DNA of 50,871 nt, filler included, from Jimgerdemannia flammicorona (GCA_003990765.1; 2 parts of 2 records of this genome joined end to end with filler, not necessarily neighbours in it); one strand, 5' to 3'; positions 19,601 through 45,089 are shown, counted from the first letter of the whole stretch. Made by a program: numbers and translations. The notes: generated by a model not told the origin, from the sequence alone.

Positions 19601-19923
19601 AGGATAGGAGCATGGAGGAGGGTGTGGATGGTATAACAAAGAAGTCCTCGCTTGTCAAGAGGGGGAGAAACCCACCGACGATTAACGAAGAGAATGCAGT
19701 CGGTGAAGGTAGAGTGGAGGATGAGTGCGCGGCTGTCGATCTTACGCCGAAAATGAAGCTGGGGAGACCACCCAAAAATAGGAGCGCAGAAGAGGTGCGA
19801 GGAGGGACGGCCGAACCAAAAAAAAAGGTGAATAAGTCGAAGAGGCTACCGATGGAAGCTGGTGGTGACGATGAGGAAGGCGAGGTCTCTGGAAAAAGAA
19901 AAAAAAAAAAAAATCGCTGGTGA
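16648..19923 (+). CDS. KDM3/JMJD1-family JmjC histone demethylase (likely H3K9me1/2), join(16648..18459,18586..19923), 1049 aa
   Basis: Removing the phase-0 intron 18460-18585 (GTGAGT..CATAG) restores LKLKDWPP. C6 finger CDCCGTTIFNCYWTCSACSAEMCLDCY. Fe(II) ligands in TTNLHCDMADAVN and IPAGCAHQV. Also PDLGPKMYIAYG and DFVSPEN. Two GRPPK AT-hook-like motifs and a basic NLS-like C-terminus. Confidence 0.95.
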
Positions 19924-20560: not shown

Positions 20561-21334
20561 ATGTCAACCAGCAAGCAAGCAGATGCGCATACTAGGTCAG
20601 GTGGACCTGGGGCCTTTGACTGGCAACATGTCAGACAAAGGTATGGGCTTGGGATGGGGTCTTTTGGTGGTCCGAGTGGGCAAGGCAGCTTGGGCTGTGG
20701 AAGTGGTGCTGGTGGTGGAGCTGGAGGGCATGCAGGGAGGAGCTTTGTGGACATGCTGAGGAATGGTAGTTGGCTGGTGGGAACCTGGGGTGGGCAGGCA
20801 GGAGGGAAGGGGAAGCAGAAGGTTGGGGAGGCTGGAGGAGCTGGAGGAGCTGGACCTCAGCCAGTGGGTGGTAGGGCTGGTGGGGTGGCTGCTGGGAGTA
20901 GTGGTGGGACTGCTGATAGTAGCATGACTGGAAATCTGAAAAAACATCCAGATGTAACTGCTGATGGTGGGGCTGGGCAGATGGGCCCAAAGTGGAAGGG
21001 AGACCTGGCTGATGGTGTGACAGGGCTAGCAGTGGCACTGTTACTCAAGAAGTTGATTTCAGAGTTTGCAGCTACCTTGTGCTTCAGGGGCTTGGTGGTG
21101 CCTGCAAGGATGGTCCTGGGGCTTGTTTCACAGCAGGTGGCTGGGGCAGCCTCAGTGAAGTTCCTGAAGGGGCTGGAGGGGGTTGAGGTGGGCTTTGAGG
21201 AGGTGGGCCCACTGGATGAAGTGCTGAAGGCTAGAGTGGTAGTCAGGGAAGTTGTGGTCCCTATGGTGTAATGCCTTAGGTGGGACCCCAGGGTAGTACA
21301 GTTGCTGATAAAGGGGGTGCCTATGGTGATGAAG
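20561..21334 (+). mobile_element. LINE 5' fragment (ORF1 N-terminus), interrupted by an LTR element
   Basis: Translation (..DLADGVTGL..LLKKLISEF..TLCFRGL..VKFLKGLEGVEVGF..) is homologous to the ORF1 copies starting at 44027 and 45182. Homology stops abruptly at TGTAAG 21335. Confidence 0.85.
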
Positions 21335-23394
21335 TGTAAGAGGGTTACTTTTTAGGGTGACCGTTACATAGTTCTGGAAGGGTTTTCGGAAGTTCTGGAT
21401 GCTCTGGAAGACTGTTTTCTTTTGGTCAAGATCAATTTCATATGGAGTATGTCCTCTATGCTTATTGATTTCAAGATCGGATTGACGTCTCAACCAAAGT
21501 CCTTTTTCAGACTAGTTCTGGATGTTCAGGATTTTCCATATTTCAGGAAGTTCAAGAAACTAAGACCAGCTTAGTTGAATTGGCATATCACTGCAGACAA
21601 TACCCAATTAGGAAATTTCGTGACAGGGTTAGGAGTAAGACCTAACAGGGAGCAGATTTACTTAAGAGTGGTTTGTGGGTTATGGAATAGGTTTATTTGC
21701 TATTCATGATATTGCTATACTAGGAGTATTTGTGTGAAGGGGTATTGTGGAGAAGTATTCAGGAATGTTCTTGTGTATTCGAGTCTGAGATTCTGAGGTC
21801 TGGGGGAGGGGATATTTATACTAGTGAGGGGCTATCTGGACTATGCTAGATATGGATGTAGCACTAAATACTTTGCTGAGTCAGAATGCAGTCATGTAGT
21901 ACAAGTGTGATCTGACATGTCAAGAGATTATCTGACTGCTGAGTCAGTTCACAGTCACGTCATACAATGCTAATCTAACTATACTATGACTGCTAGGCTA
22001 TTTATGGGTTTAGGCGCTGTCTGGGTAGTCTTCGATGACATCACCATCAATGACATCATCTCTGATAAAGTAGTCATCTAGGAAGAGTGGTTCACAGATT
22101 ACTTCTCCTTGTTCACTGAGGTAGTAATACATTGGGACTTTGTCTCCATCTCACAGGATAGCATCGTCTGTCTCATAGGCTGAATAAGGTGTTGGTGGGC
22201 AAAGGATGGGTATATTGTCTTCGCTTTCATCAGATTCACTGTCTGCGTACCTTCTATAGGTTACAGCACTATGGGTTGCAGGATTGTAGTAAGCTGGCAG
22301 CTGTGGTTCATGTCGCTCATACTCAGGTGGTGGAGTGGTTGGTTCAATCTCAAGGATTGTCTGGAGGTACAGATTATGTTCTCTGGTCTCTTCATTGTAG
22401 TTGAAGTAGTCGGGGATGAATGCGAGTTGGTATTCGTGCCAGTGGTCATTGTCCCAATAAGTCTCGTATGCAGTTATGAACTGTTGTAAGTTCATCAGCA
22501 AGTTTGGTGGTGTGATCAGAGTTGGCAGAGATCCTAAGCAGAGGTCATATTGGCATCAGAGGGATCATTGTCTTCTGCCTCATCTTTGTCAAAGTGGATT
22601 ATATCATAGACGTCCTTTATGGCATATCTGACTTGAGGCATTTGCAGGATATGGTCATCAGGGTGTGGGAAGGTTCTGTCTGTAGTCTGGATGTATTCGA
22701 GGTACTTGTGGTTGAGTTCTTATATCATGTCATCGATTTGGCCGTAGGACAGGGTAGCAACCATTTCGCTGGTAGTGACTTGGAGGCGAGGAATAAAGGT
22801 GTTGTACTCATAGAAGAGTTCTTGATGTTTGCGGGCAATGAGCTTCTGGTGTTGAGACATCTGGGTAATGTCTGTATCATGGTGGTGTTTGACCATGTCT
22901 TCCAGGAGGCAGCCAATCTGGTAGTAGCTTGAGATTTGTCCAATTTGGTGGGCCTTGCTAAGTATGTTCAGGGTGTTCCATCAGGCTTCCACAAAGTAGA
23001 GGGGTGCCAGGCTATGGATATTCATGAGGGGCAGAGGGGGTGTAGCTCAGTTGATAATGGCATTCCAAATGTCAGCACAGATGCGGTTATAGATCTCAGT
23101 GGTCATGTTTGTGTGTTTGGAAGTTGTGGTTGTTATTTGTTTTGGTTCTCTGATTCGACGCATCTCGGTGCTCAGTATATATACATTTGGTCCTGATTGG
23201 TAAGATTCCGTTTGTGTAAATCTTGTGTTCTGTAACTTCATATTGACTCAGCTTTGTGTGCTGTGACTTCAGTTTGACTCAGCTTTGTGATCAAGCAGGT
23301 GATTTCCAGATTTGTTCAGAGGTCGTGTGTAATTTTGGTGGCTTGTTCAGAGGTTGACATGTAATTTCAGTAGCTTGGAGGTTGTATGCTTACA
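21335..23394 (-). repeat. 3' LTR of element A (2060 bp)
   Basis: Termini TGTAAG...CTTACA. Starts immediately after the PPT and ends at the LINE junction. TATAAATA at 21820-21813, AATAAA at 21697-21692, and a 63-bp-spaced repeat containing TGAGTCA (21874, 21937). The 5' LTR is not in view. Confidence 0.75.
22010..23106 (-). pseudogene. LTR(U3)-embedded accessory ORF A, unknown function
   Basis: Read-through translation MTTEIYNRICADIWNAIIN*ATPPLPLMNIHSLAPLYFVEA*WNTLNILSKAHQIGQISSYYQIGCLL..QKLIARKHQELFYEY... Stops are TGA/TAA, consistent with C>T. One frameshift near 22560. Acidic tail. Confidence 0.75.
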
Positions 23395-23410
23395 ACTCTC
23401 CCCTTCTTAG
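23395..23410 (-). other. Polypurine tract of element A
   Basis: Minus strand reads GAGGACGTCGAAAG-CTAAGAAGGGGAGAGT directly before TGTAAG. Confidence 0.8.
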
Positions 23411-23819
23411 CTTTCGACGTCCTCATCGGGGCCTTCTAATTTATTCTAGTGTTGTTACACCATTTGGGAGGTCAAAAGTCTGGTAAGATCCATTTTCTCA
23501 GAAAGTGGCATGCTTGTAGTACAGTTGCCTAATGCTTTGGATTCACACGTTAAAGGGTCGTGTGTTCAATGCCATATGCCAGAAGTGATTCTGATGTCAT
23601 TCACTGCTGGAGAATTTCCTCTAAGGAATCTTCTTAAATGTCTATGCCTTGTTTCCCATCAGTAGTACAGAGAGAATAGGCTTGCTTTCAGTTTTGCTAT
23701 TTTTCCAGGGATTCGGTATTCTTGTCTTGTTTTGCTGAGTTCTTGGTTTGGTTTGCAATAATTATAATGTTTGGGAGGATAATATATAGTATGTATGGAT
23801 AGGTGCGGAATATTTGGTT

Positions 23820-25370
23820 CTAGTTGTTCAAGGAATCATATTTCTGAACTAGGTTGGTAGCATTCTGGAGATTGGTCTTGGGTTCCCAGATTGCATCATG
23901 GATTAGGTAACCTTTCCATTTGACAAGGTACTCAGGATGGTTCTTGTTGCCACGTTTGTTGAGGATTTGTTCAACTTCGTACTCTTCTTCATCATTAATA
24001 ATGACAGGTGTAGGTGGTTCAGTGGTCTGGTTGGGGAATAGCTCATCATCATTCTCATTGTATCTCTTGAGACATTGAACATTAAAGACTGGGTGAATCT
24101 TAATGGTGTCCAGTAGCGCTAGTTTGTAGGAGGTTGGAGAGACTTGTGCAATGACTTCAAATGGTCCAATGAACTTGCTGTTCAGCTTTGTGAATGGTCT
24201 GTACTTGAGGTTGTCAACTCGGTATCCTCAGATGTCTAGTAGGACTTTTTCTCCAATATCAAAAGTTCCTTCTTGGCAGTGTTGGTTAACATACTGTGAC
24301 TGTTGTTCTTGAGCTCGTGATAAATTCTCAATTGTGATCTGGCTTAGATTGCACATTCGGAGTAGGAATTCTTCAATAGCTTCGACTGTGGAGAGTTCAT
24401 CGGTAGTTCGGATAAGTGTCAAAGGGGTGTTTGGGTTTTGTCCAGTATTGGCGAACAATGGGGTCATTCCAAGAGAGGCTTGCTTGCTGTTGTTATAGGC
24501 AAACTCGACTGTGGTGAGATGTTCATGCCAATCATCTTGTCTGTAGGAGACATAGTTCCTTAGCATTTGTTTCAGAGTTTGGTTCATTCTTTCGGTTTGG
24601 CCATCAGTTTCAGGGTGAAAGGCTGTGGATAGTGCAAGTTTCGTTCCAAGGTGTGCATGGAGGGCTTTCCAAAAATGGCTAGTGAATTTCGGATCTCGGT
24701 CACTGACAATGATCTTGGGAAGACCATGATAGTGGAAGATGTTGTCAAACAAGAGTGTAGCTATATCTGGTGCTGTTGCAGTAGTGGTAGTAGGCACAAA
24801 GTGGGCTTGTTTGCTGAGGTAGTCCACAAAGACAACAATTGCATCTTTCCTGTTCTTGGTTCGGGGTAGTTGTACAATGAAGTCCATAGAGATTCGTTCC
24901 CAATTTGCAGATGGTACTGGAATAGGGTGGAGTAAGCCGGGTTTTGCTAGTGTTGAGGACTTGTTTCGTTGGCAGGCATCACAGGAAGTGATATAGGTTT
25001 TGAGCTGATCTGCCATGCGGGGCCAATAGAAGTTTCGGGAGATAACTTCATAACATTTATCAAATCCTAAATGTCCAGCTGTAGGGGCATCATGACATTC
25101 GAATAGGATAGTCCTTCACAGGTCTTGGTTGTTTGGAACATACAATCTGTTCTTATAGTAGATAGCATTGTCCTTGAGTTGGTATTGATTGTACCAGGTA
25201 TGCTTGTCAGCATCATCATTGTTTAGGATTTCTTGGAGTACTTGAGCTTCTTTATCATGAACACATGCTGCAATGATTTGTTCCATGATAGTGTTGGTAA
25301 CCAAGGTCAGAGTTTGGATAACCTCTTCGATTAGTGGTCTGGAGATTACATTGGTAACAATATTTTCCTT
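23820..25370 (-). pseudogene. pol: pol 3' part: integrase (HHCC, DDE), GPF motif, chromodomain
   Basis: HDAPTAGHLG..CDACQ, ISMDFIVQLP, IVSDRDPKF, HPETDGQTER, KFIGPF, YEVEQIL..YLVKWKGY...IWEPKTNL. In-frame TGA at 25116 and 24228. Confidence 0.93.
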
Positions 25371-25388
25371 GGGGGGGGGTGGGGGGGG

Positions 25389-25488
25389 NNNNNNNNNNNN
25401 NNNNNNNNNNNNNNNNNNNNNNNNNNNNNNNNTTAATTAATTAANNNNNNNNNNNNNNNNNNNNNNNNNNNNNNNNNNNNNNNNNNNN
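25389..25488. other. Assembly gap / contig-joining spacer
   Basis: N44-TTAATTAATTAA-N44, a linker with stops in all six frames. Confidence 0.97.
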
Positions 25489-25812
25489 CAGAAATTATAG
25501 ACTTTTGGAGACCATTATACTATACAGAGATCATCATGCAGAAATTGCATAAGAAAACTGCCAAATTGCAGGACCATTATATATAAGGAATGACCACACT
25601 ATACACAAATCACTACTATACTCAAGAACCTATCTCAATAAGGAAATCACTCACAGATATCTAGCTTTTGACTATTATATCACTAAATACCAACAAGGAT
25701 ACCAGAAATCTTAGAACAATTTATTACTTTTAACAAAGTAACTGAGGGCTCAAGCCAAACTACATCAACCCTCAATCTTGTAATTTGTCTCCATTGAGCC
25801 AGGTATATTATA
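25489..25812 (+). repeat. 5' LTR of element B (3' part only)
   Basis: Aligns with 34407-34824. Differences are overwhelmingly C/T and G/A transitions. Confidence 0.9.
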
Positions 25813-28800
25813 TTTAGAGGCTCAATGGGAAGATTTCAAAATTAATATGACTTTTCAACTCACAAGAACCCACAGCCAAACTGAATACATTTGATATAAT
25901 ACTAATTTCTACCACTATAGGAGAATCAGTCATTACCAGTATTTGGATAGGAAGAGAAGTAATAACTTTAAGACTTACCAACTATGTAGCATCAGAAGGA
26001 TCCCAATTAGAACCAGAAGCTAGTACAGTCTAAAATCCACAACTAGATCAACTAGATAATACAGATAATCCTGTTAGAGACTTTGGAGAATTTGCTTAAG
26101 AACTAGAAGATATCATTATATAAGCCCAAAATCATGCAGCCAGATATCTCACAGCAGTTCTGCCAATCTCACCTATAGAACCTTTACCACCAGCTCTTGC
26201 AGAATTAGAAGTAGCTCCTATAAGAATACCTAGGCTCATTCCACTTCATCTAAGGTCCAGAACACTATCCTCAAGGTACCCAAGTACTCTAATTTCCAGT
26301 AGTAGTTCAGAAAGCAAATCAGAGTTGGAATCTGAATCAGAATCTGGATGAGAATCAGAATCAGAAAAAAGTGATAATGAAATGGCTACCTCATTGCCAA
26401 CCTTTACAGGATATCTGGAGGAAGATTCTAGAGAATTTCTTGATGGAATTGAAGGGACCACAGTCCTGAGGAATCTTTCAGATGAAAGGAAAATTACTAT
26501 CTATAAGGCCTAGCTCAGAGAACCAGTCAGAGGAATTTCCACTGAATAGCAAATGATCCAAATTCAGAACTGATAGTAGAAATATAAACAGTAGTATCTT
26601 TTCAGCCAGAATACATAGCCATGGTCTACTGACTTATTGAAAAATATGCAGAAAATGAAATCTGCTACAAGGCTCAAGAATCCATCATGGAGATGAAGAT
26701 GAATCTTAGAGAATCACTCAGAGTATTCTTCATAAGAATCCAGAAAAGAATGTATACAGCTGGGTTCAATACCACCAACTAAGACATTATAGGTCTGATG
26801 GTCTTCATGAATGGAATTCCACCAAACATTATCTAGCATATTCATACCCTAGGCATCAGAAGGTCCAAAGAGTAGGTAGATGCAGCTCAAGGATTTTTTA
26901 ATATCAGATAAGGAACTACCTAAAGTAATTATGACAAGAAGGATGATAAAGAAGACATTCTGGTCAAAGCCCTACAAGGACTCCTTTATGGACAAGAAAG
27001 ATCTGAAGAAAGAAGGCCAGCCAAAGAAGGAAAGAAGAGTAAGAGTAAAATTTAAGACCTTAGCTCCAGTTGGACTGATTGGTTGGATAGATTGAAAAAC
27101 TCACCACATGTGAAAATTGGAGTTATCAAGACAATAGAGGATACCCACCACAAAGAAACCAAGGTTATCCACTAAGAGATAATAGGAACTACTAGTAAGA
27201 AGAAAGAAGATATCCTGTTTGAGATAGAACCCAAGTCCAATGCTTCTACTGTAGATAATTCAGATACTATACCACTGAATGTGACAACAAAAGAGTGACC
27301 AAAGGGACTCAGAACCACTAAACTGAAGGAGTGATATAGTACAAGAAGACTGAAGCCCATCCTATTGAGGATTTTGAAGAAGCAAGCAACAGTGAAGACT
27401 ACAGTGACTTAAACTTGTACCCTACTAAGGTTACCACCCAAAAGACAGTCTATCCAGCAGAGAAAAGAAAGAGACCTATTGAAAGGTCATCCAGAAATAT
27501 CAGCAGAAGAATTGTTCAAGAAGAAGATAAAGAATATGAAGAGGAATAAGTAGAAACACCTTCTCAGACTTCTTTACTTTTTGTCCCCAAGACAAATAAG
27601 TTGCCACCAGAGGATGAAAAAATAGAACAAGAAGAACAGGAATCTGCTGCTCCAAAGCCCAAGAAGATGTATATCCCAAAGACCATATCCAGAGACATCT
27701 ACAATGAAGTCTGGCAGAAGATTCAAGAAGTCAAGATAGAAGTCCCCATTCTACAGTTCCTACAGCTGACACCAGCTAGAGTCCAAAACAAATTACTGAG
27801 AACCACTAGGTCTAGTACTGACCAAGTTCCAATCCCACAATGAGAGCCAGCTTCTATTCCTATCCAAGCTGCAGAAAGACATATCAGCACCTACCTATAT
27901 GGAGATATTGGAGGACAAAAGGCAAAAATTCTCATAGACACAGAAGCAGCTATCTGTGTCATTGCCAAATAATTCCTGGATACCCTCCAATGGCCCATTG
28001 ATGGACCATCCAACCTCAGTATCATAGTAGCAGATGGAGCCCGAACTTAGCCCCTTGGAGAAGTACAAAACATCATTATTTCTCTTAGACACATTCAGTT
28101 CTCTATCCCAAAAGCTGTTGTTGCTAAAGCTGTCACCTATGATATAATCCTTAGTACCAACTAGATGAAAGAAATGAATACAGTTGTTGATATCAGTCAA
28201 CAAGTACTCAAGTTTGACTACTGAGGTAAGAAGTACAGAGTTAAGGTGACCAGCTATGAGCAATCAAAGAAGAAAAAGAAGGTCACCATCTAGAAAGAAT
28301 ATACCAGCAGTGAAGAATCTACTATAGAAGAGGAAGAAGAATCTGAAGATAGAAATGATCCCAAACTCAATCCCCAAATTAACCTAGTAAATGACAGACC
28401 AGAAGACAATGTATGAGTCAAGAACACTATCCCCATTACTATCAGAGCTATTGCAGGAGAAATCAAAGGATGTCCCACCTGCCTCAAGAGACACAAGTGC
28501 CCTGAGCACTCCTCCAAGATCATTGGGACAAGGAATTCACCTGGCACAGCCTGCCCAGGGTGCAGAAAGAAGAAGAAGAAATGCAGACATGTTCCAGAAA
28601 CACCTGCAGCTGAAGCTGCAGAAGTATAAGTAATTTGGGAACAAGAATCATCTGAGGAAGAAGAAGCTCCTGACTAAGAAGTTCCTGAACAAGAAGTATC
28701 TGAAGAAGAAGAGGTCTCTGAACTCATTCCCTAGGATGATCTTCACTGGACACTACCTGAAGATAATGACTCTGGAATATAGAAGAAGGACTCAGCACAA

Positions 28801-29570
28801 TCCCCATCATTCCCAAAAAAGAAACTCACCAAGAAAGGGCATTTCAGCTGGGAAGATGTCTACATCAAATGGTCTTCCACTCTTTCTGAGACTACTGCTA
28901 TTAGTGCCATCTACTAGACCAGCAAGAAAGACAGAGATCCCAAAGACCAGAACCCCTGACTATAGTTACACAGTCAACTATCTTCCAAGAAGTTACTATC
29001 AGATTGCAAAGCTAATTTGGAGAACAAGGTCTTTTTACCTGAACAGAAATATATCCCTTATCTACTTTTCTCTCAACTTATGACCAAGATGGGTACTAAT
29101 TCCCAAGATAACAAGAAATCAATAACCAGAAACAGTATTTTTAAATAATGGAATATTGCAATCATAGAAGACACCCAGACTACTGAGACTGCAGAAATCA
29201 GAAGATTCACTTCAGTCATGATGTTGTAATCCACATCTTGAAGAGAGAAGATAACAGAGACCAGATCTGAAAAAGCCAGACCAAGAAGCCAGAAAGAAGG
29301 ACCCTTAAGATCTATGATTTAGGAGAAAACATCCTAACTCTTATCAGACATACAACCTGTCAAGGATGGGTAGAGGATGCCACCAACTTCATAAAAGCCC
29401 TAGACCCTATAGAAAGAAGAGAAATCAACTATCTCCAAGACCCCTCTACTGGAGCCAGATGGCCACACCTCAATCTTAGAGCCTGAAGGCTCTCTGCTAG
29501 TGGAGCTTCAGCCCTAGGACAGCCTGAACTCAGCAAGGATATTGCTCAGTATGCTCTGCTGCATTCCAAG

Positions 29571-30234
29571 GCCAAACCTCTGATAAAAGCTCACTCAGAA
29601 GATGTAGGATATAATCTTCACAGTCTGGAGGATAAATCCATCAAGTCTGGAAAAACATTTATAATCAGAACTAGACTAGCCATACAGTCACCCCAAGGAG
29701 CTTACATCCAACTGACCTCAAGATCTGGACTTGCCAGATAATAGATAACTATAGAAGGAGGAACTATTGACCTAGAATATATATAGACAAAATCAAGATC
29801 ATCCTACACAATAGTAGCACAGAATGGTACCGAATTATTAGAAGACAGAAGATTGCTCAAGTAGTCTTCATGAAGGTCAAGACCTCACAATTTTTTTTTT
29901 TTTTTTTTTTTTATAGTCACTTAGACTTTGCCATTTATTACTAGTCTATTAATATAGTTACAGTATCATCTCTCACTACCCAATCCCTATAGGGGAGTCC
30001 ACCCCCTATATCTTTATAAATAAAGACTACTTTCTCACTCATCACTCCAACCCTCCCCCCACTCTGCCTATAGATTTTCTCTACTAAGTGATGCCTCCAA
30101 CCACCCTGCAAACCCCAACCAAGCCATCAGCCTATCATAGTGTCTTCCATAAGCCCTTTCTAGTCAAGACTCCACAATTGTAAGAAGTCTCTGAACTGAC
30201 TGAAGGAACAAGACAAGCCAAAGGATTTGGAAGT
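29571..30234 (+). pseudogene. dUTPase domain between protease and RT (split by a LINE fragment)
   Basis: All five dUTPase motifs in decayed form: KAHSEDVGYNL, SRSGLA, GGTID..Y, KIAQVVF, RQAKGFGS. Confidence 0.88.
29893..30162 (-). mobile_element. 5'-truncated LINE 3' fragment inserted in the dUTPase
   Basis: Reverse complement ends AATAAA..AAGTCTAAGTGACTAT-(A)n. 17-bp TSD GTCAAGACCTCACAATT (29876-29892) / GTCAAGACTCCACAATT (30163-30179). Confidence 0.9.
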
Positions 30235-31671
30235 TTAGACAAGAAGGAAGTACATCTTCTTCAAGTCAACCACCTCAAGAGGAATGTCCCCCAGCAAGTA
30301 TACTGCCAACCAGTCAAACTGCACAAGAATCTCATCCTGGAGCCTGAAGAATAAACCATCTTTGAAATCTTTGCACCACCTGACTCCAGAAATCTTTTCT
30401 TTGAACCCAATGAAGATATCCTACACCTAGACATAGAAGAATATACATTCCCTGACAAGATAAACCCAGTACACTCCTGAGAAACCAATGAAAGTTGAGA
30501 AACCATCATCTTACCAAAAGGAATCATCATGGGACATCTGGTGTCTTTTGCCTTTTCTTAACTGAACTCATAGAGAAGTTTATGAACTAAACTTATTAGG
30601 AAATAGCAAAAGGTTTCAGAAGAAAGGAAAGGCCCCTCTGCAACCCAGGAGACAGTAAAGCCTTCCACCAATATTGGAGAAGAATTGACATCCCAACAAT
30701 AGTAACAATTAGTAGAACTCCTCAACAAATATCAAGATATCTTCACTACTGATTATGGCAATCTGCCATACAATAATCCATCATATCACCACAGTATAAA
30801 TATAGAAAACATAATACCCATCTGGCAGAAATCCTATAGAATACCCCATTACTTAAAAACATTTGAAAAGGAGCACATTCAGGAACTCTTAGATAATGGA
30901 GTCATCCGACCCTCTACCAGCCCCTGGGCCAGCCCTATACTTATTGTATCAAAGAAAGGAGAATGGAGACTCTGTGTAGATTACAGAAAACTCAATTTAG
31001 TCACTGAAAAGAATGCCTATCCTTTGCCCAGAATCAATGACCTTTTGGATCAGTTACAAGATGCCAGATACTTCAGCAGTATGAACCTTTTTGCAGGATT
31101 CCATGAGATTTCCATGGACCTTAAAGACATTCAAAAGACAGTCTTTCTTGCTCTAGAAAAACTGTTTGAATACCTCTGAATACCCTTTGGACTTTGCAAT
31201 ATACCCCCCATATTTCAGAGGATGATGAATTCAGTCTATACTCTCTTGATTCATTACTGTCTGATTATATATATAGATAATTCCAACATCTATTCAACAA
31301 ATTTCAAAGAATACCTATACCATCTAGAGGAATTCTTCAAGCTCACCTATAAGAATCACCTGAGACTCAATGCAAAGAAATACTACTTCAGGAAACAGAA
31401 ACTTGAATTTTTTGGATTCATAGTTTCAAAAAAAGGAATCTACATAGACCCAAAGAAAACTGAGAAGATCAACAATTAGCCAGTACTCAAGACCCCAAAA
31501 GAGACACTATCATTTCTGATGCTAGTATCTTACTACAGAAGGTTTATTAAGGACTTTGCCCAAATCGCTGTCCCAATCCAAGTCCTCCTTAAGAAAGAAG
31601 TATCTTACAAATATATAGAATCACAAGAGAAAGCCTTCAAAGAACTTAAGAACTACATGACCACAGCACTA

Positions 31672-31677
<6 letters not shown>

Positions 31678-31704
<27 letters not shown>
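31678..31704 (-). mobile_element. Poly(A)-only retro-insertion
   Basis: Pure T tract flanked by a 17-bp TSD CCACAGCACTAATCCTT (31661-31677) / CCACAACACTAATCCTT (31705-31721), interrupting pol. Confidence 0.8.
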
Positions 31705-33157
31705 CCACAACACTAATCCTTGTATACCTCAATCTACAGAAGCCATTCATCTTATATACAGATGCTTCCAAAGATGGCCTAGGAGTAGTTCTAGCCTAAG
31801 AAGAACCTGACCAACAATATTATGTAATAGCTTATGTAAGCTGAGCTACCAATTAGCAGCAGATGAACTATGGTAGCACCAAACTAGAATGCCTTACAGT
31901 CATATGGGCAGTCACTCTGTTCAAGCATTACTTCATCAGAAAAAGGTCCACCCTAATTACAGACCATGCAGCCCTCAAATGGCTATTCAACTATAAGAAA
32001 TCCACCAGAATTCTAGCCTGCTGGATCCTTATCCTTCAGGATTACAAAATCACTATTATCTACAAAGCAGGAAAAACTTATATCAATATTAATGTACTTT
32101 CCTGTCAGCCTCAATAAACCAGAAGAAGGGTGTCCTGAGAAACTATACTCTAAAGAAAGCTCCTCAGACCATCAAGGTACAAGAAGATCTCATCTGAAAA
32201 GAACACCAGAAAGCCCACTAAGGATAAGTAAATATAAAAGAAAAGTTATAAACAATATACCAACATTGGTCCAACCTCAGAACATAAGTCCAGGATATAC
32301 TCAAGAAATATGATACCTGCCAGAAGTACCAAGGAAGAAAGAACTACCAAGCACCACTGCAATTAATTATACCACTAGACAACATCCTTCAGAGATGGAA
32401 GTAGATGTAATTAGACCCCTATCAGTTATACTAAGAAGAAACAAGTACATTCTTATATTTGTAGAATATCTGACCAAATGACCTAAGACTTTTCCAATAG
32501 AAATTACAGATGTCTTGACTATTATAGGTCTTCTCTACAAACTCACACTCAGATATAGATCCTCAGAAGAATTCATCTCTGAGCAAGACACAGAATATAA
32601 TCATAAGTTATACTTGAATTCACAAGATCCAGCTCAAATAGACCACATCATACTACTTTCAGACCAATGGTATGATAGAAAGAATAAACTAGACCATCAA
32701 GAAAGGACTTGCCTGAGTCAATCCTACCAATTGAGACCTTTGCTTACCTGAGATCCTATGGGAAATTCAGAACACCCCTGCTACCTTCACCAAACAAAAG
32801 TCATTCAAAATGATGTTTGCCAAGAAAACCAGAACTGCTGATCATAAGAATCTCAGAGACCTCCTCAAGAAGGCAGAACAGTTATGTAATCAAGCCTGAG
32901 CTCAGATTATTAAAGCCCAAGAAAGACAAAAGAAGTACTATAACCAGAAACAGAAGGATCAGGAGATCAAGATTGGAGATCAAGTACTAGTTTGGAGAAG
33001 TATGATTGAAACAAATTTTGTTACCAAACTGGAGCCTAAATGAGAAGGACCTTAACTTGTATACAATATCAGAGGAACTAACATCTATTTAAGAAATATA
33101 GATGAACCCTCAGAATATCAGTACATATCAACTACCTCAAGATATACCTCTCCTATC

Positions 33158-33670
33158 ATGAATCAGACAATTGACCAGTGCCTTTAGACCCTTGTTCTGA
33201 GTTTATTCCAATTACTCCCAGTTTCCCTTCCACAATTCAAACAAGCCAACAGAAATCCCCTTCAATGAATCTAGACCCATTAAGAGAACCTTACCTTGGC
33301 TAGACGTTTACTGCAAGTCCACCAGCTGCAAGCCTACTATGCAATCAGAGAATAGTTGCAGAACCTCCCAATAGCAGACCTAATCTACATTAGAAACTCC
33401 ACTGGTCTCACTCAGAAAAATACCACTGCTGTAGATAGATTGTATACAATCTACAAATTAAATATTCCAGTATTGATACAGGCACAATTTCTCTTGAATG
33501 ACATTTAAAACATAAACTCTGTTACCTACTAGAGTATCATCAACCATGTTGAGATCCTGTTTCCAGAGAAAGAAGAAGAACCTATTAATTGGAGTAACTT
33601 TAATTCAAATGAAGATACTGGTTCAGATATTGATACTGAAGATGCTTATATACATTGGAATGATAACTAA
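33158..33670 (+). pseudogene. Accessory ORF B between integrase and PPT (170 codons), homolog of ORF A
   Basis: Single frame from ATG 33158 to TAA 33670 with seven internal stops, all revertible by T>C. Contains NPLQ*I*TH*ENLTLARRLLQVHQLQAYYAI(R<G)E*L. Acidic tail. Confidence 0.7.
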
Positions 33671-33710
33671 ATGATTGTCTGAGGACAGATCTTTCTTTAG
33701 TAGAGGCTGA

Positions 33711-34824
33711 TATGATGAGCAACAGAATTGTACTGCTGGAATTATAAAATAGCCACATATGTACTATATCTAGTACACTAAGCAACTATAACTATATAAA
33801 ATACCCCAGAGACAAGAGTGAATAAACCTCAGTCTGAAATTCAGAATACATTTCAACTCTGGTTCACTTTCCAATACAAAGAAGAGTCTAAAATTTAAAT
33901 CTAAAGTAAAAGACAAGTCTGCCTACTATACTTTAAGAGGAACTCTATAGCTACTACTAGAAGATTGTGAGCTTTACTATTCCATTTCCACTCTGGTCTC
34001 CTTTCTAATACAAAGCCTTAGTTTGCTTGCCAGATAAGTCTGAAGAAATCCACGAAGTTCAAGTAAAGAACTTTGCTATCTTTTAAAGAGAAATCTGCTA
34101 CATAAAGACTAAGCCACTACATTTTTGGTTCACTTGTCAGATAAGCCTAAAGAATTTACCTATATTCTCAGAGAGCTCTTAAGGAATCTTGCCACAAGTC
34201 AGTCTATTAGATATAACTTCACAGTAATCTATTTGTATAAACAAAGTCAGTCTTTGATGTAACTTGCCAAGAATCTGAGTTATTAGTTTATTTCCAGTGA
34301 GCCCGATTCAGAGAATCTGCCACCAGTATTATTCCTAGTAAGCTGATTTAGAAGAATCTGTACCATCTCTATTCCCAGTGAATCTGTATCAAATTAAGTC
34401 ATCCATCAGAAATTGTATACTTTTGGAGACCATTACACTACACAAAGATCATCATATAGAAATTATATAAAGAAATTGCCAAATTACCAGACCATCATAT
34501 ATAAGGAACCCACTACACTATATAGAGATTATCATATAGAAATCAGAGATTATTACTCAAGAAGAAAAACTGCTAAATTGTTGGACCATTATGTATAAGG
34601 AATAATCATATTATATACAAATCACTACTATACCCAAGAACTCATCCCAATAAGGAAATTGCTTGCAGATATCTAGCTTTTGACTATTATACTACTAAAT
34701 ACCAATAAGAATACCAGGAATCTTAGAATATTTTATTGCTTTTAATAAAGTAACTAGGGGCTCAAGCCAAACTACATCAACCTCCAATTTTGTAATTTGC
34801 CTCTATTGAGCCAGACACATTATA
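33711..34824 (+). repeat. 3' LTR of element B (about 1.1 kb)
   Basis: Follows a decayed GAGGAC..TAGTAGAGGCTGA PPT. Termini TATGATG/CATTATA are consistent with a mutated TGTGATG/CATCACA. The 3' part matches the 5' LTR. The start coordinate is inferred. Confidence 0.75.
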
Positions 34825-35462
34825 ATAGAAATAATTTACTAGCAATTCTAATGAAATTTACAATGAAATTGCTAATGGAAATTATATCAGAAATTTCAAT
34901 ATAGTAGTAATATATTATATATTTAGCCATAGCTCTAATCTATATAAATATTCTCTATACTGAATATATTATAACCTCAGCTCTACTTTTCTCTCTCAAG
35001 AATATAGAAGTATTCTTATCAAAGAACTCTAAGATCTAACTTATTAATAATTCTAAACTTGATTAACTTGAGATACATGTATAATATCTTTATTTGATAT
35101 AAGACTTCAAAAGTAATACTTAGATTATATCTCAATAATAGATATTTAGAACTTAGTACTTTCTCATATATAGAACTCAGAACTTAGAGTTAATTATCTA
35201 TTCAGATTATTTACAATATATTAACTTTATTAGTATATAGTTTTATTATATATATTTAATTAATAATATAATTATATAATATATTCTAAATTATAAATTT
35301 TATAGATTTTTAATAAAAAAATTTAATTATTATAAATATAAAAGAAAATATTTTTTTTTAAAAAAAAAAACTCTCTATATAAATAAACTTAAAGAGAGGT
35401 TTTTATTAGTTTATAAAATTTTATTATATATTATTATATTTATTTTTTTATAATAAATAGTA

Positions 35463-36001
35463 CTCCAAATGAGTCAATTTAATCCAGATTAGATTCAGAT
35501 AGATGGAATTTGAATCTCATCTAGATCAATTCAAATCAACTATTGTTTTAATTTCTAAATTAGACAATTAATATTTACATCAATAACTCAATAAATAATC
35601 ATCTAATTTTTGATAATCTTAGTATTATTTGAAAGCCCTTAATAAGACTTTTCTAATGATACTAAGAATATTAAAATCAGATTACATATTGCTGAGCTAT
35701 TAAGGAAAACATTTTTTTAAAAAACTTTCCAAAATCAGCAAGTCAAATAATTTCTAAAATTGGTAAGTCAGACATTTTCTTTGATAACTCAGCAATACAT
35801 AATCTAATTTCAATATTCTTAGTATTATTAGAAAGACCTTATTAAGAGCTTTCAAATGATACCAAGATTATTAAAATTAGATGATTATTTATTAAGTTAT
35901 TAATATAAACATTTAATTATCTAATTTGGAAATCAAAACAATGGCTGATTCAAATCAATCTATATGAGATTTGAATCTGATCTGAATTAGCTCATTCAGA
36001 G
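35463..36001. mobile_element. Foldback/MITE-like non-autonomous element
   Basis: Inverted arms of about 245 bp (CTCCAAATGAGTCAATT.. / ..AATTAGCTCATTCAGAG) with a short spacer, flanked by TA on both sides. Confidence 0.8.
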
Positions 36002-36081
36002 TATTAATAATAAATTAAATATAACTATTATCATGTAGTGGTCACTGAGTCCTTCAAATATACCAGATTCTTTTCAAGGTA

Positions 36082-37694
36082 CAGTAGTGAGCAAAAGGGT
36101 AACAATGTTTTGAAAATTTTACTTTTATAAATAATATCTCTATAAATAATTAATATAATGAAATTTAACTTATATTTTCCAAAAGCTCTTGCTTTTTTTT
36201 ACCATTAGTTAAAATATTATTTTGATACCATTATTATTTAGCTTGCAATAAATTTTTACATTAATACTATATATTGTTACCCTTTTGGCTTTTCCACCAC
36301 CATTTTTGCTATTTTAATATTTCACATAATCCACTTAACCTTTTATACAGCTGCGATATATGGCATCATTCTTGGCATCATTCTTGACATCATTCTTGGT
36401 GTAAAAATGGTGTAAAAATTCATACTGACATTTGTTTCTTATACAAAATGTGGAAGCTATCTATTGAGATTCACGACACTATCATCAATAGGTTGAATTC
36501 CAGGCAGTCAGCAAAAAAGATTGCCAAAGCAATTGGCATAAGCATTACTTCAGTTAGCTGCATCTGAAATGAGCATTGTGATGACACAAACATATCAAAA
36601 GGTAGTCATCCACCAAAGTTATCTACTCAAGATAGATCATAGATTGTCCACCAGGTATCCAGTGGCAAGATTGAAACTGCTGCAAACATCGCAAAAATAC
36701 TTCAAGAAGAGGGCCAAGCCAGTGTGATCACAACCACAATACATCGAACGTTAAAAGGTGCTGGTTTGAAGTCATTTGTGAAGCAGAAAAGCTGTTATTA
36801 TTGCTACACTATATCAAATCATGGTATGAATTCGTACAAAAATACAAGGACTGGACCATAGATGACTGGAAACGGGTGACATTCTCAGACAAAACAAAAG
36901 TCAACTGTTTGGGGTTGGACAGATGAGAATGGGCATGGAAGAGGCCTGGGGCGCAGCTTGAGCAATATCATGTGACTCTAACATTGAAATTTGGTAGCAG
37001 ATCGATTATGATTTGGAGATGTATGAGTTACTATAGCATTGGATATGTATGCAGAATTGACAGGCATATGAATTCAGAGCTATATATGGAAATTCTCGAA
37101 GATGAATTAAAGGAATCTATTAAATTCTTTAGAATGGACAAAAAGAAGGTGATATTTCAACAAGATAATGATCCAAAACATACATCGAAGTTGGCACGCA
37201 ACTGGTTCAAGAACAATTCCATCCATTTGCTAGATTGGCCAGTACAGTCTCCTGATCTTAATCCAATTGAACATCTTTGGAGACATCTCAAACAACTGCT
37301 CAATGCGTATGATGAACCACCTAAAGGAATGCAAGAGCTTTGGAAACATATAGAGTATGAATGGGAAGGTATATCGACTGAAAAATGCATTGACCTAATT
37401 GAGAGCATGCCAAGACGTATTGCTGCTGTGTACAAGGCCAAAGGAGGTTATGTGAAATATTAAAATAGCAAAAATGGCAGTGGAAAAACCAAAAGGGTAA
37501 CAATATATAGTATTAATGTAAAAATTTATTATAAGCTAAATAATAATAGTATCAAAATAATATTTTAACCAATGGTAAAGAAAAGCAAGAGCTTTTGGAA
37601 AATATAAGTTATATTTCATTATATTAATTATTTATAGAGATATTATTTATAAAAGTAAATTTTCAAAACATTGTTATCCTTTTGCTCATCACTG
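36082..37694 (+). mobile_element. Tc1 (DD34E) DNA transposon with long TIRs
   Basis: TA TSD at 36080-81 and 37695-96; termini CAGT..ACTG; inverted repeats of about 250-270 bp. Confidence 0.95.
36448..37463 (+). pseudogene. Tc1 transposase, disrupted
   Basis: N-terminal HTH (SAKKIAKAIGISITSVS), FSD(K)TK, FQQDNDPKH..SPDLNPIEHLW with 34 residues between D and E, KAKGGYVKY*. Stops and a frameshift in the 5' half. Confidence 0.93.
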
Positions 37695-38005
37695 TATATC
37701 TCTTAGACTAACTTAAGTTTGTTATAAGCAAGTTCTTATTGGAGTACCTTTCTAAGGTCTTATAGTCCTCAAACTTCTTATCTTTAACTATCTTGTTATC
37801 TCTTAGATTGTTTGCAAGAGATTGTATATAAGTAAACCAGAACTGACTTTTATTTTAAAGGAAATAAGAGAGATATTTATACAAAATATAATTCAATGGT
37901 TGCTAAGATATAAAGCTAAATATAAATTCCAATAACTAAAACAAAATGTCAGGACAGAAAAAATTACTAAGTTCCAGGGTTGGCACTGATGGTTATATAA
38001 GTATA

Positions 38006-38084
38006 ATTCAGTATTACATCAGAATACCAGTGCTAGCATTATTCAGTATTATATCAGAATACCAGTACTGGCATTATTCAGTAT
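38006..38084. repeat. 35-bp tandem repeat (about 2.3 copies) in the putative U3
   Basis: ATTCAGTATTAYATCAGAATACCAGTRCTRGCATT at 38006 and 38041, partial copy at 38076. Confidence 0.9.
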
Positions 38085-38095
38085 AACCAAGAGAC

Positions 38096-38953
38096 TTAGA
38101 GCAGAATGTTCAAGACTATAGGGGCTTTATCATTAGAGGTCAGGATGTCTTTGAAGGAGATAAGGTCCACAAATTTATCATCATCATATAGATCATGTAT
38201 TTCACATACTTTGTATGCTTTATTGTGCATCTCACATATGTTATATGAAATGACATTATTGCCAATAACATCATCACATTTGGCAGTAGAGAAATCAGGA
38301 ACAAGGATATCTGGAGCTCTCAAGTCTATGAGGTTTTCTTTCACAAAATAGAGAACAAATGTGGGGTCTTGGGGAGATCTAACCTAGATACTTGGGCCTT
38401 GGAATACTGAGATCAATCCTTGTAGGAATTGGTCTAAGTTGTTCTGGAGAATGGAATGTCAGAAGTCTTCTACTTTGTCACTATTGAGAGTGATAGTAGA
38501 CTGGGCTTCTATAGCCACTCTGGCTTCTAGTATATTGATATGGCAAGATAACAGATCTCTGAAGTCTGAGACTCTAACATACTCCAAGTTAGAGATCGAC
38601 CATAGTATATATCTGAAGATCTGATAGATCTTCTTAGCTATCTTTGCCTTATATATATCTATGAGAGTGGTATTTTATAGCTCTTGAGAGCTGGTCTGTA
38701 GGAACTCCCAGTAGAGGAGGTTTCCTATTTTGTACTTCTGCCACATTTGGAGGCATTTGGTAGCAATAGTGATTCTTGTTTCCATTTCACAATGGTAGAG
38801 AATATAGTAATAAGAGTCACCAGTACTTAGGTTGATACTAGGAGTCCTTCTTGAGTAGGTCCTCATAGCTCTTCTGATGTCTTGGAACATTCTTTCTTCA
38901 ACTGAGATACCTTGGTGGTTCCTTGACCTTAAGGTTTGGTGAACAGCAGGCAT
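38096..38953 (-). pseudogene. Accessory ORF C (285 codons), homolog of ORFs A and B
   Basis: Track ORFs 38675-38953 and 38096-38344 are one frame with three C>T-type stops. Contains RMFQDIRRAM..PSINLST..QMWQKYKIGNLL..KAKIAKKIYQIFRY..ISNLEYV. Confidence 0.75.
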
Positions 38954-40109
38954 TTTGTTTATAGTAAGTCTTTGAGCTATTTTGGGATTAGTAAGTCTTG
39001 TTGATTGCTGTTACTACAGTTCTTTAATCCTTTTTATATTCCTCAAGATACTATACTGTGGTCACAATATCTCACAGTTGGTCATCATTGCTCATCTTAT
39101 ATGCCATATGATCTTCTTGTACTCTGATCTGGTGACTTGTGAGGAAAGGCTGTCCCCTGTGCTGATATTATTATTCTGGAGTCACTATTATACTATATAT
39201 AATATATTACCATTTTTACTAAGATCTCTATTTACTATATTTATTTAATCTTTCCTTCACTATTTTTATCTCCTTTGTCATTATTTTCTTTAGTGCTCAG
39301 AATGAATCAAATTGAATCAAATTTGACTCCAATTTAATTTAATTTTATTTTAATTCAAAGTTTAATTTGAACCAAATTTTTCAAAATTTAATAACACAAT
39401 CAAAAAATATCCAAATTTAATGAATTTTAGCCTGTTATATGTGCCTTATGATGGTGAATATAGTATAATAAAGAATATTAAATTTGAATATATTTTTATT
39501 AAGTTATGATATTTTAAATTTAGGATAAAAATTTTAAATTAAATCAGACCTCAATATGATTTAAACTTGATTTGATTTGAACCTAATATAAATTGAAAAA
39601 TCCCCAATTTGATTTAATTTGAATGACCCTCAATTCAATTCAATTTGAATTGATTTAATATATTAATCTTCTTTATATATCTCTATTTTCTTTACTATTA
39701 TTTTTTTAAAAATATTTAAAATTTTAATATAATTTAGTACAGAGCTTAATATAGTAAAGTTGCTAAATTTTATTAAATTTAGACCTAAATTTATTGAGAT
39801 ATTGAAGTTTTTATATTTTATTTTTTAAAATAATAGTGGTTTTTTCTCAAGTCTTAATTTTCTCAAAATTAATCAACTTTAAAAGAATATAACTTTATAT
39901 CTCAGTATTTAAATATAAAAGAAAGAGGCATCTTAATTTTATAGATAAATAACTAGAAAATAAAAATATGAAGCAAGTTTGTTAATATCTTTTTTTATTC
40001 TAAAGTTCTATTCTTGTGAAGATATGAAATTGTCTTTGCTGCGCCCTTTTAGTAAATTATCCGATTATGACGTCACTGCCCTTTTTTTTTTTTATGTCGT
40101 TGTCGTTTC

Positions 40110-40782
40110 CCTTTCACTCTTCCCTTTCTTCCAACTCTCTCCTCTTCCCTTTCTTCCAACTCTCTTTCACTTTATACAAATACCTCAGATCCTAGGTCCA
40201 AACCGCCATCAGGCCCAGAATATAGCCAACAACTCTACTCTACGCGTAAGTCCATTTTTTTCCTTTCGAATTAGCAGGCGTGGTGTTGGAAAGATGGAAA
40301 CACAAAAAAATGTCAATACGCTTATAGTCCATATTCTCTTTGTCACTCAACTAACAAGAGTCGTTTGATTCATACACGCCATCCTCTGCTCATCATAATA
40401 TTAATGGCTACATTGCATTCCTTTTAGAGGTTGGTCCGCCACCCCTTATGGTGAAAAGAAGAATACATTACGGCCAAAACGTTTTGCAAAAAAAAACAAG
40501 TATGGTGGAGTAGAGAGTGAAAACAGCTTGGTACACGGTACGTGGGAACAGCCCACGTACGATGGATTGCCTACCTTTGTAGTACGCAAACATTGTGCCT
40601 GTGTTAGCATAAGTATGGCACATCTCCGGCTATTCGCAACTGCTGGGGAGCATACTGGTGGTGAAAAGTATGAGCGATTGTTATGCAATCGAAGTGGTAC
40701 TTGTGCGCTCCGCCATACAACGTTTTAGCAAATTTGGCGCGTTGTAAAAACATGTCCAGAACAATCACAGGTGGGTTTGTTT
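40110..40782 (+). repeat. Dispersed duplicated segment, copy 2
   Basis: Colinear similarity to 13950-14680. Confidence 0.85.
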
Positions 40783-40869
40783 TTAATGATATTTAAACCA
40801 AATGATTTTTATGTTAAAGACTATAACTAACTGACCCCGCAACCGGCCACGTTGCCGGTCTTGGTTGCT

Positions 40870-41547
40870 TTCTGCCCCGGCTCCGTTGACGTCGCCTCCG
40901 AGGAGGTAGTCGGATCGGCCATCGAGGCCACGATCGCCAGATTTGGCAGACTTGGCTGACGTGTTGCATTGCGCGGGCATCATCACGGCGGGAAAGGTAT
41001 ATACACACTCGATCTGATTTTAGCATTATCCTAATTCATTCGTAACCCCTTCACTTTCAACCGTATCCCTCGCGTACAAAGATCGCCGAACCGGGCAAGC
41101 CCGCCGGCAACCTTGATATATTTGATCTCACATCCACGGAACGTTCAACGTGCCGCAAAAAGTGGCTGCCGTGCTCGTGAATCAGGAGCCGATTAATGAG
41201 GACGGTATGTTAAGGATGCTTGAACTGTTGCCCACATGATACTTATGCCTGCTTTCTCCGATCCATCAGACTCAACCCATTCCCCCCTTTTAACCACAGG
41301 AAAACGCGGCGTGATTATTAACACGGTCTCGATCGCCTACCAGGACAGCCAGGTTGGCTAAGTGGCCTATGCGATACCTAGCGCCTCTCCAGTCTGTTAT
41401 CACAAAACATCCCCAAGTAATGAGAGACATCGAATTTCTGCTCACCCTGCTGAGCTTGCCAAGCTTGTGGCCATGATTGTCGAGAACCCGATGATGAACG
41501 GAGGAACAATCCGACTGGATGGAGCGACGAGGTTGGGGAAGGCATGA
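40870..41547 (+). pseudogene. Short-chain dehydrogenase pseudogene, 3-hydroxyacyl-CoA dehydrogenase type-2 (HSD17B10-like)
   Basis: DVASEEVV..AI..FGRL..LHCAGI; HGTFNV; EDG|KRGVIINTVSIAYQDSQVG*VAYA; ENPMMNGGTIRLDGATRL. Introns 40997-41081 and 41205-41299. TAA 41359-41361, frameshifts, missing N-terminus and mid-section. Confidence 0.85.
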
Positions 41548-41819
41548 AATTGTGCGTGCCAGGATGGTCAAGATGGCGGATAGGATGTTTGGCAGGGTAT
41601 TGGGCATAATTGTATCATAACATGAACGGATAATCCCGAGATCATATAGTTGTAATGATAAAACCGATAGTTCTTCTTACACAAGTGCCTTTGGGGCAGA
41701 GTGTGCTGTCTGAACTTTGATTTGTGTATTAATTTTTATTTTTTGGGGGCATACCGCAACTTGTTCCCATGTATTGTAAATATACAGAGAGATATATATA
41801 TTTGGGTCACACTAACCGC

Positions 41820-43199: not shown

Positions 43200-43520
43200 T
43201 ATAAATACCAAAGATAATATTAGAAAGATACTACTATACTAGACTGCCACAAGTATTCATATAGAGGTCTTATATCTGGGCTAAGTAAATACTAATACTA
43301 TCAATAGTACTGGAGATATACTGCTATACTAGATTATAGTGGGCAGCCATATAGTTATTTTATACTAAGTTTGGAATAAAGGCTAATACTAAGAATAACT
43401 ATCATCAGATACTACTATACTATACTATAATATATAGATATATAGAAGTTATTAGGTTGCTCAAGACAGATATTAATGATAATAATAGATATACCTCACT
43501 ATATTTAGCCATAGTCTATA
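43200..43520 (+). pseudogene. Hypermutated ankyrin-repeat relic (about 4 repeats)
   Basis: ATA CTR CTA TAC TAK at 43228, 43318 and 43409 back-mutates to T-P-L-H-W/Y, followed by H/Y-I-E-V and IRLL. Fourth copy TSLYLA at 43493. Confidence 0.6.
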
Positions 43521-45085: not shown

Positions 45086-45089
45086 AATC

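Follow-up and report, generated by a model that had tools for sequence, protein, structure and literature searches.

An orphan gene probably carried in the long terminal repeat of a Jimgerdemannia flammicorona chromovirus, and two candidate relatives

The sag gene of mouse mammary tumor virus (MMTV) and the 3′ part of nef of human immunodeficiency virus (HIV) are encoded in the unique 3′ (U3) region of the long terminal repeat (LTR), and Tas/Bel1 of the foamy viruses is an acidic trans-activator of a complex retrovirus. Here we analyze a stretch of 50,871 nts from the fungus Jimgerdemannia flammicorona (GCA_003990765.1), hereafter the window, in which a first-pass annotation had described three open reading frames (ORFs), A, B, and C, as one accessory-protein family carried by three different LTR elements. 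LTR retrotransposons with extra ORFs have been described before. A figure of PMC2864245 shows an “add. ORF” of unknown function in fungal Gypsy elements, and in bdelloid rotifers ORF3 types are described as common to unrelated retroelement lineages (PMC5408684); the relevant passages of PMC3248453 mention inserted additional domains and no such extra ORF. Among the carriers described in fungi, PosPlaTy3-5 of Postia placenta has a dUTPase between protease and reverse transcriptase (RT), and LTRs are given as typically a few hundred bp long, 440 bp in the case of SM-Tcn1 (PMC2864245). A literature search for a retrotransposon ORF within an LTR, or for an ORF3 of fungal gypsy elements, found nothing specific, which does not show that none has been published.

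The reading that we favor, with a probability of roughly 60%, is that the window holds two real orphan genes (ORF A and ORF C) and one decayed candidate (stretch B), and not one proven family on three LTR elements. The three stretches exist as described, and the peptides quoted for them are present in the sequence:

22010–23106, − strand: ORF A, ~365 codons, made up of A1 (22537–23106) and A2 (22010–22555), with 4 in-frame stops (3 TGA, 1 TAA)
33158–33670, + strand: stretch B, 170 codons with 7 stops, directly after the integrase C-terminus of element B and in the same frame
38096–38953, − strand: ORF C, 285 codons interrupted by 3 stops; it is a decayed member of an orphan protein family

If the 2,060-bp LTR proposed below for the carrier of ORF A (element A) holds, ORF A would occur in both LTRs, placed after the LTR start and ahead of the TATA box, an arrangement like that of MMTV sag and the 3′ part of HIV nef; there is, however, no sequence likeness to these genes, the host is a fungus, and element A is a chromovirus without env. 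With Tas/Bel1, ORF A shares a position 3′ of the structural genes and an acidic-hydrophobic C-terminal stretch. ORF A has no homology to Tas/Bel1, and this likeness is one of plan only. Like the additional ORFs (aORFs) and ORF3 of other retroelements, ORF A lies in sense at the 3′ end of its element in addition to gag and pol, is devoid of env features, and is kept in diverged copies; its likening to the fungal “add. ORF” goes by the description in the figure legend (PMC2864245). The idea of one ORF type in different lineages also recalls the rotifer ORF3, although these ORF3 proteins are recognizable enzymes or env-like, whereas ORF A and ORF C match no family (PMC5408684). Two further comparisons concern the carriers and not the extra ORFs: element B, which contains stretch B, shows the same protease-dUTPase-RT order as PosPlaTy3-5, and element A shares integrase and chromodomain with the fungal chromoviruses, while its putative LTR measures 2,060 bp against a typical length of a few hundred bp in that source (PMC2864245).

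ORF A is a real, conserved gene, although not in the form in which it had been annotated. Read in a single frame, the interval 22010–23106 gives sense for residues 1–190 only (23106 to 22537); the remainder, including the DDVIDGDVI tail, lies in another frame (22555 to 22013), and a frameshift or small indel within 22537–22555 separates the two. In other copies of the element, found as contigs of 4 public runs, an extra T is present at 22539/22540, exactly at this break. Two relatives from metagenomes bear on the point. P0005 (128 aa, 87% identical, stop-free) covers the N-terminus, and P0006 (247 aa, 67% identical, stop-free) extends from residue 115 of A to the end, crossing the A1/A2 join in one frame. 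Since both relatives are stop-free and P0006 spans the join, ORF A is taken as one ORF of ~365 aa. Its decay is mild: in mononucleotide shuffles, A1 has 3 stops against 8.7 expected (P 0.023) and A2 has 1 against 9.1 (P 0.002), giving 4 stops against ~18 over the whole ORF, and at these four positions the relatives have Arg, Arg, Gln, and Trp. When neutral drift was simulated up to the divergence of P0006, the frame stayed stop-free in 2.8% of 2000 simulations. A point that tells against this argument is that the relatives were ascertained as predicted proteins, hence with a bias to open copies; because searches of predicted proteins favor such copies, the 2.8% figure overstates the case somewhat.

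Few relatives of ORF A were found. A HMMER search with the A profile against 1.84 billion representatives returned 4 proteins at E ≤ 0.001, two of which are P0005 and P0006; the other two, long repeat proteins with 6 and 9 short matching stretches, were rejected as artefacts. The protein search found no longer relatives of A, the sequence clusters looked up for the relatives are singletons, and scans of metagenomes and viral contigs found no loci of the A and C relatives. Intact copies do exist, with stop-free relatives found for both A (2) and C (5), but the suggested resemblance to an expanded Glomeromycota-type “YY.G..ARKIY.LF” family found no backing in these numbers, with 2 true relatives of A among 1.84 billion representatives and 5 of C. 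A separate observation concerns the opposite strand of A1, which has a frame with 1 stop in 190 codons: a 138-aa ORF antisense to ORF A is found at 22516–22932 (+ strand), probably as a by-product of the codon bias of A.

The genomic setting of ORF A is provided by element A, whose recognizable parts are the following:

25389–25488: assembly gap, two 44-N runs (25389–25432 and 25445–25488) with 12 bases between them
23819–25388, − strand: 3′ part of the element A pol, with integrase (zinc-binding domain, core, and SH3) and chromodomain, cut off upstream by the N gap
23396–23408, − strand: polypurine tract AAGAAGGGGAGAG, separated by one base from the putative start of the LTR
21335–23394, − strand: putative 3′ LTR of element A, 2,060 bp, TGTAAG...CTTACA, with ORF A in its U3
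21813–21820, − strand: TATAAATA box, likely the U3 promoter (inferred function), 190 nts after the ORF A stop

Element A is a chromovirus, a Ty3/gypsy element with chromodomain, present in high copy number in a soil fungus with CpG-depleted repeats. On the − strand of 23831–25385, Pfam recognizes Integrase_H2C2 (4.6e-21), SH3_Tf2-1 (5.3e-15), Chromo (1.8e-14), and rve (1.4e-08), so that an integrase is followed by a chromodomain at the C-terminus of pol, as in chromoviruses. Copies of the element, 80–99% alike, were found as 4805, 590, 463, and 584 short contigs from the 4 public runs, soil metagenome being among the run labels. The pol stop lies at ~23819–23821, and ORF A starts ~710 nts later on the same strand in a different frame. 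It is thus in sense, within the element and outside gag and pol, being located 3′ of the integrase-chromodomain and before the element end at 21335, and it is open in diverged copies, as P0005 (87%) and P0006 (67%) indicate.

We propose that the region from 23394 down to 21335 is a 2,060-bp 3′ LTR with ORF A in its U3, on the combined evidence of a purine tract, matching TGTAAG/CTTACA ends, a continuation resembling a primer-binding site (PBS), and TATAAATA after the ORF. AAGAAGGGGAGAG is the only run of at least 10 purines on the − strand of 21300–23900; one base further on comes TGTAAG, found a single time on the − strand within 21300–23830, whose reverse complement, CTTACA, has its last base at 21335. 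Two runs each contain one contig that departs from the window at 21335/21337. One of these departing contigs reads, on the element strand, CTTACA and then the PBS-like word TGGTAGCAG, which, as expected of a 5′ LTR/PBS junction, would pair with an initiator-tRNA-Met-like primer at its 3′ end. Summed contig depth, a weak and unreliable measure, exceeds that of the integrase part 2.2–3.6-fold over the ORF A part in all 4 runs, and 6–10-fold over the last 550 bp. Two points count against the proposal. A second rise in depth near 21985 is equally explained by a shorter LTR, and the membership of ORF A in the LTR rests on motifs and contig depth, because the 5′ LTR was lost in the N gap. Overall, we consider that ORF A probably lies within the U3 of a 2,060-bp 3′ LTR.

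Other candidate boundaries were rejected. Loose contig ends at 23442, 21387, and 23360 proved to be small indels against the window, and an LTR start at TGTATG (21966) matches in 5 of 6 positions and lacks a preceding purine tract; we estimate that chance alone would give ~9 matches of this kind in 2 kb. A repeat adjoining the end of element A (20871–21206) recurs at 44319–44652 and 45604–45806, with 64–71% identity.

ORF C is likewise a real orphan gene, here in the form of a dead copy. It has 3 stops against 18.0 expected, and none of 1000 shuffles had as few. A word-based search found five stop-free relatives (161–271 aa, 53–67% identical), unnamed or annotated as “hypothetical”. The first Met of C is present in P0009, a LNFLL-type end in 4 of the 5 relatives, and the center is strongly conserved. 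At the stops of C the relatives have Gln, Trp, and Gln/Arg; with Arg, Gln, or Trp of the relatives at their stops, A and C fit a decay by C>T and G>A. In neutral drift simulations, the chance of the C relatives staying open was 0.3–2%.

On the other hand, the claim of three different LTR elements is not supported, because C has no retroelement genes or LTR pair around it. Only two LTR elements are visible in the window. Pfam gave no family near C in the three − strand frames of 34825–44002 (the + strand of 34825–50871 and the − strand of 44003–50871 were covered as single long ORFs), so that neither RT nor integrase accompanies it, and the search for an LTR pair around C, or for LTR ends, a purine tract, and a target duplication, found none. 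Accordingly, the statement that the ORFs are in sense to their element and, for A and B, 3′ of integrase holds for the latter two; for C no element is detectable and sense to an element is not shown, nor can C be classed with the aORF or ORF3 of any element. A TATAAATA box lies 215 nts after the ORF C stop, and C could sit in a solo LTR or in another repeat.

Stretch B belongs to the second LTR element of the window, which lies head to head with element A on the other side of the N gap 25389–25488:

25489–34824, + strand: element B, a decayed Ty3/gypsy element, recognized by LTR pieces and Pfam domains
25489–25812 and 34407–34824, + strand: LTR pieces of element B, 84–86% identical
~27901–28152, + strand: protease
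29586–29780, + strand: dUTPase (Pfam 1.7e-06), between protease and RT
30952–31425, + strand: RT
31734–32045, + strand: RNase H
32177–32332, + strand: integrase zinc domain

Stretch B is a decayed continuation of the pol frame of this element. It is in sense to element B but inseparable from pol: no stop separates it from the integrase C-terminus and, unlike the case of A, no purine tract lies between the two. Being in the integrase frame with no intervening stop, it is not demonstrable as a separate ORF, and since its 7 stops compare with 11.0 expected (P 0.11, mononucleotide shuffles), it could equally be non-coding DNA. The same element's integrase core is about equally decayed (21 stops in 327 codons). 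Stretch B occupies the place that is held by the chromodomain in element A; for element B, Pfam gave no chromodomain match at E up to 0.01. The placement of the dUTPase hints at a basidiomycete-type element.

The similarity of A, B, and C was assessed at several levels. The 9 identities in 32 positions reported between A and B are 8 as the sequence reads, and become 9 if an AGA codon is taken as a former GGA. BLASTP gave E 0.012 for A-B and 4.9 for B-C; for A-C it gave 0.069 in a wrong register and 1.1 in the register of the first-pass annotation, and E 0.49 for the tail of A against C. In Smith-Waterman comparisons with 1000 shuffles, the A-B score was reached by 1–4 shuffles, the A-C score by 56–158, and the B-C score by 158. 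With P0005 as query, B was the best non-self match of 1181 six-frame segments, narrowly (50 against 46, 45 for a segment overlapping B, 43, and 41). Profile-profile comparison with hhalign aligned the N-terminus of A with the C family over 103 columns in the first-pass register (P 0.0079; A-C range 0.008–0.015) and the tail motifs RDDVIDDDLI and RDDVIGDDVI with P 0.035; the score of full-length A against C, 24.3, was reached by none of 155 column shuffles (mean 14.6, maximum 24.2).

Hidden Markov model (HMM) searches were ranked over non-overlapping six-frame segments of the window, 594 per offset, and the ranks hold when a segment contains the motif region. The A profile placed B at rank 1 of 594 (E 0.23) and C at rank 1–2 (E ~2.1); the C profile placed A at rank 2–4 (E 0.37–1.7) and B at rank 2–6 (E 0.87–4.9), and its best non-self match was P0005 (E 0.13). 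Across the three sequences a common pattern appears in consistent register, consisting of Y-x-I-G..LL, A-(R/K)-K...(I/L)(F/Y), I-P-x-L (FIPRL in A, NIPVL in B, SIPNL in the C family), and an acidic tail. Moreover, of all the segments it is B, the top match of the A profile, that comes after the other integrase in sense, and its Met aligns with that of A to within one residue. This position is independent of the choice by likeness made in the first-pass annotation, and its chance is ~1–2 in 594.

Several results weigh on the other side. The HMM ranks drop to 15, 16, 25, and 72 at unfavorable segment offsets, and with the six-frame window as search space all HMM E-values exceed 0.1 (0.13 to 5). 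The C profile scores + 32133–32981 and + 13772–14452 as high as A or B, and with a BLOSUM-averaged position-specific scoring matrix (PSSM) of C neither A nor B ranked among the 13 best of 729 segments. At the nucleotide level, the flanks of the three are unlike one another (z −0.8 to 0.6), and B is statistically no ORF, as described above. A back-mutation-aware scoring of B against the C profile was discarded, being swamped by AT-rich segments.

Taken together, the similarity is marginal: above typical noise and register-consistent, yet not significant when the search of the window is allowed for. Common ancestry of all three sequences would, on these alignments, have a chance of even or a shade under, and the probability of kinship between A and B alone is somewhat higher. 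Against shuffled and six-frame controls the proposal of one family draws mixed results, with the A-B Smith-Waterman scores, hhalign, and the HMM ranks on one side and the marginal E-values and the negative PSSM on the other.

The strongest competitor of our reading is chance resemblance, according to which A and C are unrelated lineage-specific ORFs, B is the non-coding decay of a pol tail, and the shared motifs come from a composition made alike by C>T/G>A mutation. The BLASTP E-values (0.012 to 4.9), the 56–158 of 1000 shuffles reaching the A-C and B-C scores, the negative PSSM, the near-random stop count of B, and the two unrelated segments that match the C profile equally well (+ 32133–32981 and + 13772–14452) are all in its favor. 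It does not readily explain that the same register is recovered independently in three pairings, that the top A-profile match falls exactly 3′ of the other integrase (~1–2 in 594), or that no column shuffle reached the observed score. We regard it as a serious contender that falls somewhat short of an even chance.

The same observations, read the other way, speak for the first-pass proposal that A, B, and C form one accessory family spread over divergent lineages of Ty3/gypsy; the place of C would then be a solo LTR or a gutted element. The consistent register in all three pairings, the reciprocal HMM ranks of 1–6 of 594, the hhalign P-values of 0.0079 and 0.035 with 0 of 155 shuffles reaching the score, and the acidic tails in all three are what such a family would produce. 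So is the recurrence of TATAAATA at 190 nts after the A stop and 215 nts after the C stop. If A lies in an LTR, the lack of pol around C would be explained by a solo LTR. However, no score is significant once the search of the window is allowed for, the PSSM test failed, the search for LTR ends, a purine tract, and a target duplication at C came up empty, the flanks show no similarity, and B abuts the integrase with no purine tract, unlike A. We therefore hold a single family to be doubtful as an account of all three stretches.

A further alternative would detach ORF A from its carrier, making it a separate repeat or a captured host gene that abuts a truncated chromovirus. The difference in summed depth between the ORF A part and the integrase part could be read in this way, and so could the position of ORF A in another frame, ~710 nts from the pol stop. 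Yet a purine tract and matching TG...CA ends bracket both ORF A and the promoter-like part, a PBS-like word follows position 21335 in another copy, as at a 5′ LTR, and the search of 1.84 billion representatives gave no cellular homologue; we find this alternative quite improbable.

The ORF A product is soluble, with a helical N-terminal domain of ~130 aa, a middle part rich in Tyr, Pro, and acidic residues, and an acidic-hydrophobic C-terminal motif; the C protein is similarly built, beginning with a basic stretch, followed by helices and ending in an acidic-hydrophobic tail. The AlphaFold models show helices only but are of poor quality, with a predicted local distance difference test score (pLDDT) of 52 for the A N-terminus and 35 for C. 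The acidic tails noted for A, B, and C are real: in 8 of 8 sequences the last 40 residues contain 8–12 D/E and 1–4 K/R. Pfam, run on A, B, C, and 4 intact relatives, returned no family at cut-off, and the CCHC/gag profiles were unmatched in 8 of 8 sequences; the best sub-threshold match was DUF6827 (E 0.079, 13.2 bits against a cut-off of 26.9). No CCHC motif was seen in the printed sequences of the A and C families. Nor was a membrane segment found, the maximum 19-residue Kyte-Doolittle mean being 0.57–1.48 in 8 of 8 sequences, with no window reaching 1.6. The proteins thus present neither the signal peptide or membrane anchor of an env nor the features of a gag, and the first-pass annotation had itself named a match to a known gag, env, or transposase domain as the finding that would speak against it; none was found at the Pfam cut-off. 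That A, B, and C are diverged gag, env, or transposase sequences is hardly credible, as nothing beyond their position in repeat-rich DNA speaks for it and the lack of Pfam matches, membrane anchor, and CCHC motif speaks against it. The description as a soluble helical accessory protein kept in diverged copies applies to A, with helicity taken from low-confidence models, and not to B, which is not shown to be an ORF.

The ESM Atlas gave no usable neighbors for P0005 (A) or P0009 (C). The lists obtained for A and C share 4 clusters, namely a 66-member cluster of a 105-aa hypothetical protein, Closter_coat, Translat_reg, and DUF6192; we read these otherwise unrelated clusters as a hub effect of orphan sequences, or at most as a weak lead suggesting that A and C are similar in the eyes of the language model.

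Within our reading, ORF A would be an accessory gene of the chromovirus, located in the U3 of a long 3′ LTR. In such a position the gene would form part of the 3′ end of the element RNA and be duplicated with the LTRs; its expression would need a spliced, internally started, or re-initiated message. We tentatively suggest, with confidence well below even, that the protein is a trans-acting regulator or adaptor serving the element. Activation of the LTR promoter is the foremost candidate function, because the tail of A resembles an acidic activation domain; a role in trans-activation or anti-silencing may be envisaged from this acidic-hydrophobic tail. The widest version of the idea, in which divergent fungal Ty3/gypsy lineages would share a U3 accessory gene with a helical domain and an acidic tail, kept also in solo LTRs (C) and serving as trans-activator or anti-silencing factor, appears improbable on present evidence.

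Fungal LTR retrotransposons are usually annotated as gag-pol only, and ORF A is a conserved, domain-less extra gene in an abundant element of a soil fungus. If it does lie in U3, the LTRs of such elements, solo LTRs included, can be protein-coding; annotation would be affected, some orphan “hypothetical proteins” may be LTR-borne, and the finding would bear on the self-regulation of the element or its evasion of silencing linked to CpG methylation. Should the kinship of A, B, and C be true, it would point to the sharing of modules between fungal retroelement lineages, as in rotifers, and a shared U3 gene would correspond, in fungi, to the accessory genes that complex retroviruses carry in their LTRs.

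As to the setting of these sequences, the first part of the window (1–19.5 kb) consists of ordinary genes with ~50% GC and normal CpG frequency (observed/expected 0.9–1.3). Beyond 19.5 kb, 39–42 kb excepted, it is mostly repeat DNA with a CpG observed/expected ratio of 0.00–0.37 and decay of the transition type. The differences from copy to copy in the element A contigs are likewise mostly transitions. As the TpA/ApT index of the repeats is near 1, the decay looks like CpG loss linked to methylation and not like classical repeat-induced point mutation. Outside elements A and B, the following features were recorded:

18586–19920: ORF with a JmjC domain, in the host-gene part of the window
36080–37696, + strand: Tc1/mariner-type relic, 400 bp from ORF C, on the opposite strand
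36080–36336 and 37441–37696: inverted ends of the Tc1/mariner relic, 257 bp, 93% complementary
36927–37460, + strand: DDE_3 transposase piece, a 178-aa ORF (Pfam 6.7e-12)

ORF C lies outside the Tc1/mariner relic. Further along, the block at 44.5–50.9 kb is CpG-free, with a GC skew of +0.44 to +0.54, and four of its long ORFs, when scanned, matched no Pfam family. The host part of the window contains an apparent segmental duplication, 9983–13100 against 16528–19920, ~6.9 kb apart and including the region of the JmjC ORF; the pairs are 11695–11994/18568–18867 (82%), 12366–12467/19240–19341 (77%), and 10462–10544/17499–17581 (77%). Finally, a 91-nt repeat with the conserved core CTCTTTTATTGTCCCAAAGGCAA occurs four times between 2230 and 3452, at spacings of 253–606 nts.

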